A DNA stretch of 64,000 nt. It comes from Escherichia coli. GTDB taxonomy: Bacteria; Pseudomonadota; Gammaproteobacteria; Enterobacterales; Enterobacteriaceae. Position numbers and translations under genes: made by a program. Under the pieces are notes generated by a model. That model was not told where the DNA came from. It saw nothing but the letters and a program-made list of their open reading frames with translations, and did no database searches. The stretch lies in the NCBI RefSeq assembly GCF_002854065.1, contig NZ_CP024147.1; one strand, given 5' to 3'. Shown one piece after another: positions 1,870 to 59,200 of this stretch; position 1 is the stretch's first letter, and each line of letters begins with the position of its first letter.

Positions 1870-1945
<76 letters not shown>

Positions 1946-1959
1946 AATTCTTCTCTCAA

Positions 1960-2215
1960 TAAAATATCCACAGCGACGCGATGCGTTATTGCTGGTTTTT
2001 GTTGTCTCTGACAAACTCTTGTAAACAGAGTTATCCACAGCCTCAGGCCGTAATCTTAACTTCAAAGAAACTTCGCACGGTGAATAGTATTTTTTTAACC
2101 TATTGATAGATAATTTAAAAATTAAGATTTCGTTTTGTCGAGTCGATCACTTGACGATTTTATTCGTCTTGAATTGCAATGCGTTTTTATTTTTATTCAC
2201 AAGCTGTGGATGAAT
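1960..2215. promoter_or_regulatory. datA: datA-like DnaA-titration locus: DnaA boxes ATATCCACA (1964-1972), TTATCCACA (2031-2039), TTATTCACA (2193-2201), inverted TGTGGATGA (2205-2213); IHF-consensus site TATCAATAGGTTA on minus strand (2096-2108)
   Basis: 9-mers matching the TTATNCACA DnaA-box consensus and a WATCAANNNNTTR IHF match read in the non-coding interval between glyY and queG, where datA lies in K-12 as I recall. Confidence 0.55.
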
Positions 2216-3354
2216 CAGGCGTCACGCGGTAACCCTTTTTCAATTACCCGAACCAGACGCTGTTTTTTCGGCAATTGCACTTCGACTATGCACGCATTTC
2301 GCCTCTCGATTTGCTGCGCCATCGCCCACGCTATGTGCTCATCAAGAAGTGGGTGCTCACCTTTGCGACTCTCCAGCGCCGCCAGAATCGTTTCATCCCA
2401 GGGCGCATTGCCTAATGCCACGGCGATATTACGCAGCCAGCGCAGGTGACCTATACGGCGAATCGCCGAACCTTCCGTGACTTTTAAAAACTTCTCTTCG
2501 CTCCAGGCGAATAACTCAATGAGTTCCGGTGCGTGTAGCGGCTTACGCGGGCTGAAATCGTCTTCTGTAGTGAGTTGTGAATAGCGATTCCACGGGCAGA
2601 TAAGCTGGCAGTCATCGCAACCGTAAATACGGTTTCCCATTAACGGTCGCAACTCTTCCGGGATCGCCCCTTCCAGTTCGATGGTGAGATAAGAGATACA
2701 GCGGCGAGCATCGACGGTATATGGCTCGACGATGGCACCGGTCGGGCAAATCGTCATACAGGCCACGCATTTGCCGCATCCTTCCTCGACTGGTTGATCC
2801 ACGGGCAGCGGAATATCGACCAGCAATTCGCCTAAAAAGAAGAACGAACCGGCCTCGCGATTGAGGATAAGTGAGTGCTTACCTGTCCAGCCGAGCCCAG
2901 CTTTTTCAGCTAACGGGCGCTCGAGAATAGGCGCAGAATCGACAAACGGTCTAAAATTCAGCGAAACACAATGTTGCTGAATCATCTCGCCCAGCTTTTT
3001 GAGTCGGTTGCGCAGAAGTTTGTGATAGTCACGGCCCAGCGCATAACGGCTAACATAGCCGAGTTTGGGGTTTTTCAGCGTGCTGGCAAATGCGGCGTTA
3101 GCAGGAAGGTAATTCATCCGCACGCTGATCACGCGCAGCGTACCGGGCAATAACTCATGGGGGCGAGCGCGCAGCATACCGTGACGTGCCATCCAGTCCA
3201 TTTCGCCGTGGTATTGTTTGTCCAGCCATGCTTGCAGTTTGGGCTCGGACTCGCTGAGATCGGTATCGGTAATACCTACCTGCTGAAAGCCCAGTTCCAG
3301 CCCCCACTGTTTAATTTTTTGCGCTAACTGATTGAGATCGAGGGGCTCTGACAT
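2215..3354 (-). CDS. queG: Epoxyqueuosine reductase QueG (YjeS), 4Fe-4S / cobalamin enzyme
   Basis: Track ORF 2215..3462; QueG starts at internal Met (MSEPLDLNQLAQKIKQWGLELGFQQVGITD); two CxxCxxCxxxCP ferredoxin motifs; 379 aa. Confidence 0.93.
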   Translation of the reverse strand: MSEPLDLNQLAQKIKQWGLELGFQQVGITDTDLSESEPKLQAWLDKQYHGEMDWMARHGMLRARPHELLPGTLRVISVRMNYLPANAAFASTLKNPKLGYVSRYALGRDYHKLLRNRLKKLGEMIQQHCVSLNFRPFVDSAPILERPLAEKAGLGWTGKHSLILNREAGSFFFLGELLVDIPLPVDQPVEEGCGKCVACMTICPTGAIVEPYTVDARRCISYLTIELEGAIPEELRPLMGNRIYGCDDCQLICPWNRYSQLTTEDDFSPRKPLHAPELIELFAWSEEKFLKVTEGSAIRRIGHLRWLRNIAVALGNAPWDETILAALESRKGEHPLLDEHIAWAMAQQIERRNACIVEVQLPKKQRLVRVIEKGLPRDA

Positions 3355-34069: not shown

Positions 34070-34377
34070 AGATACCTCCTCGACGGCTGACTTTGTGTGC
34101 TCTCCTCTGTGATGATCTTCTGATTTAATTTTAATCAATGATAAAGAAGTTGATGGTGACCATTTCTGATGCAGTTGTTCGAAAAAACACTGTGACGGAA
34201 TGTGATGAACTTCAAATCAGCGGTTTAGAGGTTATTTGCGAAAGGGGAGATTTATTTCTGCTCCGCCCTTGAGTTTAGCGGGGTATGTCAGTACTATAAC
34301 GCGTCATTTTTCAGCCGACCTTTAACACGTTCCTTGCCTCCCCGGGATTCGGCTGACCCAGACAGGAGGCTGAATAA

Positions 34378-34791
<414 letters not shown>

Positions 34792-44511: not shown

Positions 44512-46484
44512 TTACTTACTCAAATCCACCTGATAAATCGCAAACCCGATATCATCGGTCGCGACTTTATTCATCGGATATTGCCCTTTCTCTTTAATAA
44601 ACGCTGCGGCTTTATCTGACGGGGAAGTTTCGAAACGGATATCCAGTTTCTTATCGCCGGCTATCGGTGCTAAACGCCAGTTGTTATCTGCCGCCGGGTG
44701 AATTTCCCCCGCACGTTTCGACTCATCAGCAATCCACGCTGCCAGCACCGAGCGGTTCTCATCCGGTGAAGCAAAAGCGATATGGCTGTCGCCCGTACCG
44801 GCAAATTTGCCGCCGTAAGCGCGATAGTTATTGGTGGCAACGAGGAACATGGCGTTCGGATCAATCGGCTTGCCGTTAAAGGTCAGGTTCTTAATCCTTT
44901 CCGCATTGGCATTAACCATCTGGCACTCGCCGTCATAACGGGCAGGCTGGGTAACATCAATCTGATAATTCACACCATCAATCACATCAAAGTTATAGGT
45001 GCGGAAACCATCCCAGTTGATGAGTGACTGTGGTTTCGTGTTGTCAGGATCAATCTGGTTAAACTGTCCGGCGGAGCACTCCAGCCACTCTTTCACCTCT
45101 TTACCGCTGGCTTTCACCACAATCAGCGTATTGGGGTAGAGATAAAGATCGGCGGCATTACGGAAGGTCAACTGGCCTTTTTCCACCTCCACATAGCTTG
45201 CCGGATCATTTTTGCGACCACCAACTTTAAACGGTGCAGCAGCTGAAAGCACCGGCAGTTTTGCCAGATCCGGATCGTCCTGAATGTAATGCTCGACATA
45301 CGCTTTTTGCGCGTTGTTCACCACCTGCACGGTCGGATCGTCCTGCACCAGCGCCAGATAGCTATACATATTGTCGGCGGATTTACCGATTGGCTTGCTG
45401 ACGAACTGGCGTGTGGCATCGTGATCGGCTTTGAGTGTTTCTACCAGCTTGCTGTCTTCCGCCGCGAGGGATTTTTTATTGGCGATGTCGTAAATCGGCC
45501 GTGCTTCCGCTTTCGCCTGCGTCACCTGCCATTTACCGCTGTTATTACTGAGTTGTAAGTCGACCACCCCAAGATGATCGCCCCACATGCCCGGCATTAC
45601 CGCCGGAACACCATTCAGCGTGCCTTTCGCGATATCAGCCCCTTCGATACGATATCAGCCCCTTCGATATCAGCAAAATCTTTACCTGGGAAAACGGCGT
45701 GAGCATGGCCAAACATAATGGCGTTAACGCCAGGAATTTCACTGAGGTAATAAACTGAGTTTTCCGCCATCACTTTATACGGATCGGCAGATAGCCCGGA
45801 ATGCGCCAGAACGACAACGACATCGGCACCTTTCTCGCGCATTTCAGGCACGTATTTGCGCACGGTTTCGGTAATATCATTCACCGTCACTTTTCCGGAT
45901 AAATTAGCTTTATCCCAGCCCATGATTTGCGGCGGCACGACGCCAATATAGCCAATCTTCAGCGTCTGTTTTTTTCCGTCTTTATCGACCACTTCGGTAT
46001 CTTTAATTAAATACGGTGTAAACATTGGCTGTTTGGTTCTGGCGTCAATGACGTTGGCATTTACATAAGGGAATTTCGCTCCCGCCAACGCATTTTTCAG
46101 GTAATCCAGACCGTAGTTAAATTCATGATTGCCGAGTGTACCGACCGTATAATCCAGCGTATTCAGCGCCTTATAAACCGGATGAACATCACCTGCTTTT
46201 AATCCTTTCGCCGATATGTAATCGGCCAGCGGACTCCCCTGAATCAAATCGCCGTTATCGACCAGTACGCTGTTTTTCACTTCATTGCGGGCATCGTTAA
46301 TCAGGCTTGCCGTACGTACCAGTCCGAATTTTTCCGTGGCGGTGTCTTTGTAATAATCGAAATCCATCATGTTGCTATGCAGATCAGTGGTTTCCATGAT
46401 ACGTAGATCGACCGTCGCTGCATTCACACTGGCGGCAATCAGCGTGGCCAGGAGCGTTGCGCTAAACTTAATCATCAGGGACAT
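44512..46484 (-). pseudogene. cpdB: cpdB (periplasmic 2',3'-cyclic-nucleotide 2'-phosphodiesterase / 3'-nucleotidase) split by a 20-bp tandem duplication
   Basis: N-terminal ORF 45615..46484 (signal peptide [36 protein letters not shown], ends ...[19 protein letters not shown]) and C-terminal ORF 44512..45597 ([15 protein letters not shown]...) are adjacent and co-directional; removing one 20-bp copy rejoins them in frame. Confidence 0.85.
45630..45669. repeat. Perfect 20-bp tandem duplication CGATATCAGCCCCTTCGATA x2 inside cpdB
   Basis: Read directly: 45630-45649 and 45650-45669 identical. Confidence 0.9.
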
Positions 46485-46664
46485 CCTTTTATCATCGGGA
46501 ATACGAAAGAAAAGGGAGAATAAACGCCTTACTTATAGAACAGTGAAGAATGCCACAATTTTACGCTTTGAAAATGATGACACTATCACAGTTGGCGCAT
46601 TCATTAACGATAGGGTATAAGTAAAACAATAAGTTAACACCGCTCACAGAGACGAGGTGGAGAA

Positions 46665-49888: not shown

Positions 49889-50064
49889 ATCTTATCCGAC
49901 CTTTCAGGCCAGATCCTCGGAAGGGGAAGTTGATTAATTTGTGTGAAATACACATTGAAAGCCGATTCGAAGAAAGTGAACCGGCATTTTCAGTGGCTAG
50001 TATAGCGTAAGGTACTGTAAAGTCGCCAGAGGGTTAAAATTCAGACTGCTGATAAATGCAATAC

Positions 50065-50165
50065 TGCCTGATGCGCTATGCCAATCAGGCCTACGCAGTC
50101 CTTGCAATATATTGAATTTGGACGATTTTGTAGGCCTGGTAAGGCGTTTACGCCGCATCTGGCAT
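50065..50165. repeat. REP/BIME palindromic elements
   Basis: GCCTGATGCGCTATGCCAATCAGGCCTAC ... GTAGGCCTGGTAAGGCGTTTACGCCGCATCTGGCA. Confidence 0.8.
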
Positions 50166-59092: not shown

Positions 59093-59200
59093 ATGCCTGA
59101 TGCCGATTCGTAGGCCGGATAAGGCGCTCGCGCCGCATCCGGCGGTGGTGCGCTGAAGCCTGATGCGACGCTTACCGCGTCTTATCATGCCTACTGGGAG
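59093..59200. repeat. REP/BIME palindromic elements
   Basis: GCCTGATGCCGATTCGTAGGCCGGATAAGGCGCTCGCGCCGCATCCGGCGG ... GCCTGATGCGACGCTTACCGCGTCTTATCATGCCTAC. Confidence 0.8.

Follow-up and report, generated by a model that had tools for sequence, protein, structure and literature searches.

datA is one of four known extrinsic regulators of the ATP/ADP cycle of DnaA in E. coli, the others being RIDA, DARS1 and DARS2. The locus has been characterised since 1996, and the mechanism known as DDAH was described in 2013. In DDAH, DnaA-bound ATP is hydrolysed independently of RIDA, which lowers the level of ATP-DnaA and represses untimely initiations (PMC5742627, PMC10380432), and the reaction is stimulated by negative supercoiling (PMC5742627). 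The published position of datA is downstream of glyV-X-Y and beside queG (PMC10950094, PMC5742627, PMC10380432). Minimal datA comprises DnaA boxes 7, 2 and 3, all in one direction, together with an IHF-binding site (IBS), and spans 183 bp (PMC5742627), or 187 bp in later papers (PMC10380432). Box 7 is essential for DDAH, box 4 is stimulatory and box 1 is dispensable (PMC5742627, PMC10950094), while the spacing from box 2 through the IBS to box 3 is functionally important (PMC4585315, PMC10380432).

Like datA, DARS1 and DARS2 are non-coding chromosomal clusters of DnaA boxes that alter the nucleotide state of DnaA, and DARS2 also needs IHF (PMC5742627, PMC10380432). Unlike datA, they are found elsewhere on the chromosome and release ADP from ADP-DnaA, which is the opposite reaction. 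The DARS core is made of oppositely oriented boxes I–III, and DARS2 additionally requires Fis sites (PMC10380432). The left DnaA-oligomerisation region of oriC (R1, IBS, R5M and the following boxes) shares with datA the combination of a high-affinity box with an IHF site, as well as head-to-tail ATP-DnaA oligomers promoted by the IHF bend (PMC5742627). ATP hydrolysis, however, has been reported for datA and not for oriC (PMC10380432), and the distance between the boxes that flank the IBS is much longer in datA. The DnaA-box clusters of Bacillus subtilis and Streptomyces coelicolor are non-origin clusters that repress untimely initiation and have been cited as analogues of datA (PMC5742627). 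They are not orthologous to it. Their action is generally attributed to titration, and neither an IHF site nor ATP hydrolysis is known for them.

Within the 64-kb stretch of E. coli DNA analysed here (the window), the 269-bp gap between the end of glyY at 1945 and the stop codon of queG at 2215 (positions 1946-2214; 34.6% G+C) is very probably the chromosomal datA of E. coli, a piece of non-coding DNA that down-regulates the replication initiator; we put the probability of this reading at about 0.97. The features of the locus and its surroundings are as follows.

1647-1722, 1759-1834 and 1870-1945, plus strand: glyV, glyX and glyY, three tRNA-Gly(GCC) genes (ARAGORN, Rfam tRNA, MG1655 annotation)
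1957-2004, plus strand: intrinsic terminator/attenuator of glyVXY, the published TglyV-X-Y (RNA fold)
1964-1972, plus strand: DnaA box 1, ATATCCACA, one mismatch, dispensable for DDAH, overlapping the 5' arm of the terminator
2019-2027, plus strand: probable DnaA box 7, TTGTAAACA, low affinity, two mismatches to TTATNCACA
2019-2201, plus strand: minimal datA, from box 7 to box 3, equal in length to the published 183-bp minimal region
2031-2039, plus strand: DnaA box 2, TTATCCACA, perfect consensus, high affinity, essential (motif scan; subDnaAbox2_L/R primers)
2096-2108, minus strand: IBS, an exact match to the WATCAANNNNTTR consensus, reading TATCAATAGGTTA on the minus and TAACCTATTGATA on the plus strand
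2179-2232, plus strand: yjeV, a 17-codon ORF (MRFYFYSQAVDESGVTR) annotated by RefSeq as 'hypothetical protein'
2193-2201, plus strand: probable DnaA box 3, TTATTCACA, exact consensus, essential
2205-2213, minus strand: probable DnaA box 4, TCATCCACA, one mismatch, inverted, stimulatory only, 3 bp after box 3
2215-3354, minus strand: queG (epoxyqueuosine reductase), in convergent orientation to glyVXY and abutting box 4 with its 3' end
2576-2584, minus strand: candidate outer DnaA box, CTATTCACA, one mismatch, inside queG
2862-2870, minus strand: candidate outer DnaA box, TTATCCTCA, one mismatch, inside queG

The gene order in the window is orn, glyV-X-Y, the gap, queG and nnr, the same as in MG1655 (by the annotation of MG1655 and best match), so that the three tRNA-Gly genes (1647-1945) lie upstream and convergent queG adjoins, as in published descriptions of datA. 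When the interval was aligned with datA of E. coli K-12 MG1655 (94.7 min; NC_000913.3 ~4392659-4392927), which has the same flanking genes, 265 of the 269 bases were identical, with four substitutions (2049 C/T, 2060 C/T, 2114 T/G and 2130 T/C) and no indels. All four substitutions fall in spacers, leaving boxes 1, 7, 2, 3 and 4 and the IHF site identical to those of the MG1655 datA core. The MG1655 coordinates that we took for the individual sites are 4392732-4392740 for box 7, 4392744-4392752 for box 2, 4392809-4392821 for the IBS, 4392906-4392914 for box 3 and 4392918-4392926 for box 4.

Published mutagenesis primers provide experimental anchors for three parts of the interval. The subDnaAbox2_L/R primers flank box 2, turn TTATCCACA into AACATGTGT and map to 2031-2039 (Kasho 2024, PMC10950094), while the ChdatAsubIBS primer, which swaps the TTGATA core of TAACCTATTGATA for AAGTAC, maps to 2096-2108 (PMC10950094). 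The delter_L/delteronly_R pair removes a segment starting AATATCCACAGCG, the 1969-1989 region including box 1; this deleted segment is TglyV-X-Y plus datA DnaA box 1, located at 1964-1972 in the window (PMC10950094). At box 2, the IBS and box 1/terminator, the primer sequences match the window base for base. The IBS of MG1655 datA, as printed in PMC4585315 (Suppl. Fig. S11), is TATCAATAGGTTA and is identical to the window's. Since the primers place box 2, the IHF site and box 1/terminator on these very sequences, the locus is datA itself, rather than the 'datA-like' arrangement named in the preliminary description. The proposal made there is thus borne out by the published position, by orthology to MG1655, by the primer sites and by the identity of the IBS, and the alignment with published datA that it had suggested places the window's motifs on the experimentally mutated sites and not elsewhere. 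We found nothing in the sequence that speaks against the identification.

Two related classes of locus were considered and rejected. The essential boxes of the interval are co-oriented, lie 153 bp apart and flank a single IHF site, and there is no DARS-type core. With respect to oriC, no duplex-unwinding 13-mer (GATCTnTTnTTTT) with fewer than three mismatches was found in 1901-2300, and the 269 bp hold one GATC, compared with 5.2 per kb window-wide.

Motif scans placed the motifs of the box cluster at the coordinates originally assigned to them. The identity, position, orientation and spacing of these sites, and their orthology to the mutated ones, are observed directly. The perfect TTATCCACA on the plus strand at 2031-2039 was recovered and lies at the experimentally mutated position of box 2, and the inverted pair reported at 2193-2213 resolves into 2193-2201 (+) and 2205-2213 (-), separated by 3 bp. 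All four sites described as consensus matches were located, although only two are exact and the other two carry one mismatch each. Of the boxes, 1, 2, 3 and 4 had been recognised but the essential low-affinity box 7 had been missed. We infer the positions of boxes 3, 4 and 7 from orientation, mismatch count, the 183-bp arithmetic and conservation. Downstream of the IBS, the site numbered box 3 is the one exact match, and it is co-oriented with box 2, as the orientation rule for datA requires (PMC5742627). Box 7 is placed at 2019-2027 because this 9-mer lies on the same strand as box 2, 3 bp upstream of it, and because the distance from its first base to the last base of box 3 (2019-2201) is exactly 183 bp. 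It would thus be the low-affinity, co-oriented neighbour of box 2 that minimal datA contains.

Between boxes 2 and 3 there is a single IHF site, and the match reported at 2096-2108 proved to be an exact consensus match on the minus strand. The 64-kb window has five matches to the IHF consensus, one of which sits between the two exact boxes. An A+T-rich tract (2109-2125) lies 5' of the WATCAA core of this site, as it does in strong IHF sites. The gaps are 56 bp from box 2 to the IBS and 84 bp from the IBS to box 3, the same as in MG1655. Beyond the interval, the queG-internal boxes at 2576-2584 and 2862-2870 are candidate outer boxes from the original datA fragment of ~1 kb. With these included, the tally for 1964-2870 is two exact and four one-mismatch boxes within ~900 bp, which is exactly the published number of datA boxes.

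The glyVXY terminator has a G+C-rich stem (1968-1995) followed by a T-run (1996-2000), with which the A-tract at 1957-1964 pairs. The RNA fold of 1946-2005 has an energy of -14.3 kcal/mol (z = -2.2), and the 5' arm overlaps box 1, in agreement with the published overlap of terminator and box 1 (PMC10950094). A generic promoter/terminator scan missed this bulged terminator. The same scan flagged a hairpin at 2135-2157 (TTGTCGAGTCGATCACTTGACGA), which we rejected as a feature; its fold is no better than that of shuffled sequences (z = -1.1). This imperfect hairpin lies between the IHF site and box 3, is followed by TTTTATT and carries the only GATC of the locus (2145) in its loop. A search of Rfam did not find a known RNA element in datA, and near the locus only the three tRNAs matched. 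Elsewhere in the window, Rfam hits above the gathering threshold occur at 34314-34398 (RpsF leader), 46476-46598 (ES239 sRNA), 49950-50129 (STnc450 and ES036, minus strand) and 59113-59191 (naRNA4); all are unremarkable for E. coli and, where compared, collinear with K-12.

The preliminary description had called the interval 270 bp of non-coding DNA. Its length from glyY to queG is 269 bp, but RefSeq annotates yjeV at 2179-2232, where it overlaps box 3, box 4 and the end of queG, and this is the sole RefSeq annotation over datA. A conserved yjeV peptide seems unlikely, because the downstream flank of box 3 varies between genera. For its promoter, a weak TTGTTG (1999-2004) and TAAACA (2022-2027) pair with a 17-bp spacer was examined and rejected, as it fails the scan criteria; as a guess, this pair would suit the published overlap of PyjeV with the terminator and box 7 (PMC10950094).

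The locus is present throughout the species. The surrounding 1.2 kb matches two complete genomes at 100% identity and occurs in 5418 of the 5426 complete genomes of E. coli searched, and the 269-bp interval itself was found in 5425 of them, nearly always at 95% identity or more. One genome gave no match to the interval, and in three records the identity was just 80-90%. Plasmid-typed records, such as NZ_CP128951.1 (655 kb), account for two of the matches. The count agrees with a published survey of 59 E. coli genomes in which all datA boxes were conserved (PMC4585315). In that survey the IBS deviated from MG1655 in 12 of the 59 genomes, and the variant TATCAATAAGTTA is shown for strains such as W, O26:H11 and O111:H- (PMC4585315). 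The strain studied here has the MG1655-type IBS TATCAATAGGTTA and not the TATCAATAAGTTA variant. The relative distance of datA to oriC is likewise conserved in the 59 genomes (PMC4585315); in its published setting, datA lies ~0.47 Mb from oriC, on the replichore of DARS1, with a gene-dosage effect.

We scanned species-representative genomes with the pattern TTATCCACA-N50-62-TAANNNNTTGATW-N78-90-TTATNCACA and obtained at least 120 loci. The pattern itself prescribes box 2, the IBS core and box 3, so that their conservation in this set is built in, and independent information comes solely from boxes 1, 4 and 7, the spacing and the synteny. Among the matches listed, the box 2/IBS/box 3 layout occurs near the 3' end of queG in ~100 Enterobacterales species. 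These include Enterobacteriaceae (Escherichia, Salmonella, Citrobacter, Klebsiella, Enterobacter, Cedecea, Buttiauxella), Erwiniaceae (Pantoea, Erwinia, Mixta, Tatumella), Yersiniaceae (Serratia, Rahnella, Rouxiella, Chimaeribacter), Hafniaceae (Edwardsiella) and Morganellaceae (Morganella, Providencia, Xenorhabdus, Photorhabdus). Conservation of this architecture across the order is observed directly in the matches listed.

In the 100 Enterobacterales loci among the matches listed, the two gaps were only 55-58 and 82-86 bp, though 50-62 and 78-90 bp were allowed, and in almost all of them a convergent queG homologue ends 17-50 bp past box 3. The box 7 9-mer has ACA at positions 7-9 in 100 of 100 of these listed loci, with T1 present in 87 and T4 in 85; it differs from the consensus by one to three mismatches and is separated from box 2 by GAG or GAC in 96. 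Of 100 listed loci, 73 have box 1 (TATCCACA) at a distance of 65-68 bp on the upstream side of box 2. The inverted box 4 (TGTGGA, 3 bp past box 3) occurs in just 42 of 99, a patchiness that fits an accessory role. This ranking mirrors the published genetics, in which box 7 is essential and boxes 4 and 1 are accessory. The spacers are otherwise poorly conserved among these listed loci. In Tatumella (three loci) and an Enterobacteriaceae MAG, the 7/2/IBS/3 core was found with normal spacing and no queG homologue in the DNA examined.

Whether the boxes could have come together by chance can be judged from their numbers. Window-wide, the counts are what chance would give: two exact matches to TTATNCACA against 1.4 expected, and 42 matches with at most one mismatch against 44.8 in shuffles. 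The region is also poor in G+C, and four matches with at most one mismatch fell within 250 bp in 9 of 300 dinucleotide shuffles, so a random grouping of degenerate 9-mers in A+T-rich intergenic DNA has something in its favour. The only two exact matches in the 64 kb, however, both lie in this gap, 162 bp apart, and just 1 of 300 dinucleotide shuffles placed two exact boxes within 250 bp of each other. Six matches with no more than one mismatch lie within 1 kb here, a density reached in 5 of the 300 shuffles. The sites are moreover, base for base, those mutated experimentally, they are retained across nearly all complete E. coli genomes, and their spacing is fixed across Enterobacterales while the spacers diverge. 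A chance cluster is refuted by this orthology and conservation, and we regard it as having a negligible probability. The identification is accordingly founded on orthology to an experimentally defined locus, and the motif statistics by themselves are only moderately strong, because window-wide counts are at chance, though the clustering is not.

Protein binding, ATP hydrolysis and cell-cycle timing at this copy of datA are drawn from the literature, where IHF-dependent hydrolysis of DnaA-bound ATP and post-initiation binding of IHF in vivo come from work on K-12 (PMC10950094, PMC5742627). By analogy, IHF would bind the single site at 2096-2108 after initiation and bend the DNA sharply. The bend would join ATP-DnaA on box 2 and low-affinity box 7 with ATP-DnaA on box 3, with box 4 assisting, and the resulting head-to-tail oligomer would hydrolyse its bound ATP to give inactive ADP-DnaA, helping to stop untimely re-initiation at oriC. 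The boxes may additionally titrate some DnaA directly. Before initiation, read-through from glyVXY past the leaky terminator (1957-2004) would clear IHF, and IHF bound at the IBS and DnaA at box 2 would in turn block read-through. In the published work, absence of IHF from datA before initiation needs read-through from the glyVXY promoter, basal read-through is set by the terminator and by DnaA at box 2, IHF at the IBS blocks read-through, and the timing of IHF needs one further factor (PMC10950094). What counts against the reading is that the contribution of DDAH to hydrolysis of DnaA-ATP has been rated small; in the wild type, loss of datA increases DnaA-ATP by just a few per cent (PMC5835720). 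A strain without all four extrinsic regulators can show nearly normal behaviour (PMC11331064).

In the original 'DnaA titration' model, datA is mainly a passive sink that soaks up free DnaA when it is duplicated soon after initiation and does not catalyse ATP hydrolysis. The two consensus and four one-mismatch boxes within ~900 bp are compatible with such a function. Direct titration of DnaA by datA is on record; it is lowered by deletions that lie outside boxes 1-4 and partly retained by plasmids carrying point mutations in box 2 or the IBS (PMC5835720). A point mutation in any one of the IBS, box 2 and box 7 nevertheless phenocopies deletion of datA, and the apparently very high titration is largely explained by DDAH (PMC5835720). 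The strict spacing among the matches listed (55-58 and 82-86 bp), the orientation and the weak box 7 suit a nucleoprotein machine, whereas a sink needs none of them, and published spacing and orientation mutants lose function (PMC4585315, PMC5742627). We therefore consider a mainly passive sink unlikely.

The sites could also serve transcription in the first place, with DnaA and IHF as roadblocks or as cofactors of an attenuator in glyVXY termination, or in control of a yjeV or queG promoter, and with replication control secondary. Box 1 does overlap the terminator stem, read-through is reduced by IHF bound to the IBS and by DnaA bound to box 2, and a putative yjeV promoter overlaps box 7 (PMC10950094). 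In the same study, though, transcription times the release of IHF, the phenotype measured is initiation timing, and deletion of the terminator and box 1 has a weak phenotype (PMC10950094). Such a role would call for point mutants that alter tRNA-Gly or queG expression but not DnaA-ATP or initiation timing, and the published data are the opposite; yjeV, for its part, is a 17-codon ORF annotated as a hypothetical protein. The comparative data point the same way. Among the matches listed, the distance from the tRNA-Gly operon to box 2 is 85-105 bp in Enterobacteriaceae, Yersiniaceae and Hafniaceae and 141-227 bp in Erwiniaceae, and in Morganellaceae the operon lies 0.47-5.5 kb away with the core architecture unchanged (scan loci L011, L029, L072 and L085 are examples). 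Because this distance varies so widely, the core is coupled more closely to the end of queG than to the terminator, and the unchanged core of Morganellaceae indicates that it is not tied to the terminator. A primarily transcriptional function is in our judgement highly improbable, and replication control through DnaA inactivation is the reading that we retain.

The Enterobacterales loci also contain two short stretches that stand out from their surroundings. A TTGA (2169-2172) and a T-tract, TTTT(A/T)(A/T)TT (2185-2192), directly 5' of box 3 are 85-100% conserved in the ~100 listed loci, while the neighbouring spacer is not. Neither is known to have a published role, and they are candidates for DNA curvature or a further protein contact. 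That they dock the factor that times IHF binding and release is a doubtful but conceivable extension.

Outside the order, a datA-like layout was seen among the matches listed in the hemE-priA spacer of about ten Sutterella/Parasutterella loci (L060:2690-2900; also L024, L026, L027, L032, L036, L042, L052, L053 and L070) and in a Burkholderiaceae MAG. It consists of a degenerate box, a perfect box, the IHF-consensus TAAnnnnTTGATT and two tandem boxes 3 bp apart, that is, TTGTCCCCA-AAG-TTATCCACA, 59 bp, TAAnnnnTTGATT, 86 bp and TTATCCACA-AAG-TTATCCACA. The right spacer of these loci has a conserved inverted repeat, cctctgatttcag...aatcagagg, and the right ends of loci from Herminiimonas (L013) and UBA6503 (L083) are similar. 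The cluster could be either an oriC or an analogue of datA, and no decisive paper on a hemE-linked origin in Burkholderiales came up in the literature searched. If it is not oriC, it might, with the same doubtful standing as the docking role of TTGA and the T-tract, be a datA-type DnaA-inactivating locus of Betaproteobacteria, outside Enterobacterales.

The locus described here was already known, its recovery from the window is a correct rediscovery, and the strain's copy is canonical; since the strain carries canonical datA, the window itself yields nothing biologically new. For Enterobacterales as a whole, the comparison has as its by-product an order-wide map of constraint on datA, in which the ACA of box 7, the two spacings and the abutment on queG are constrained, and boxes 1 and 4 and the tRNA operon's distance are not. 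The remark in the preliminary description that gene-centric annotation would miss the locus was a fair one, because datA is absent from the RefSeq feature tables. A motif-level reading of raw sequence can thus recover functional non-coding loci that RefSeq omits.
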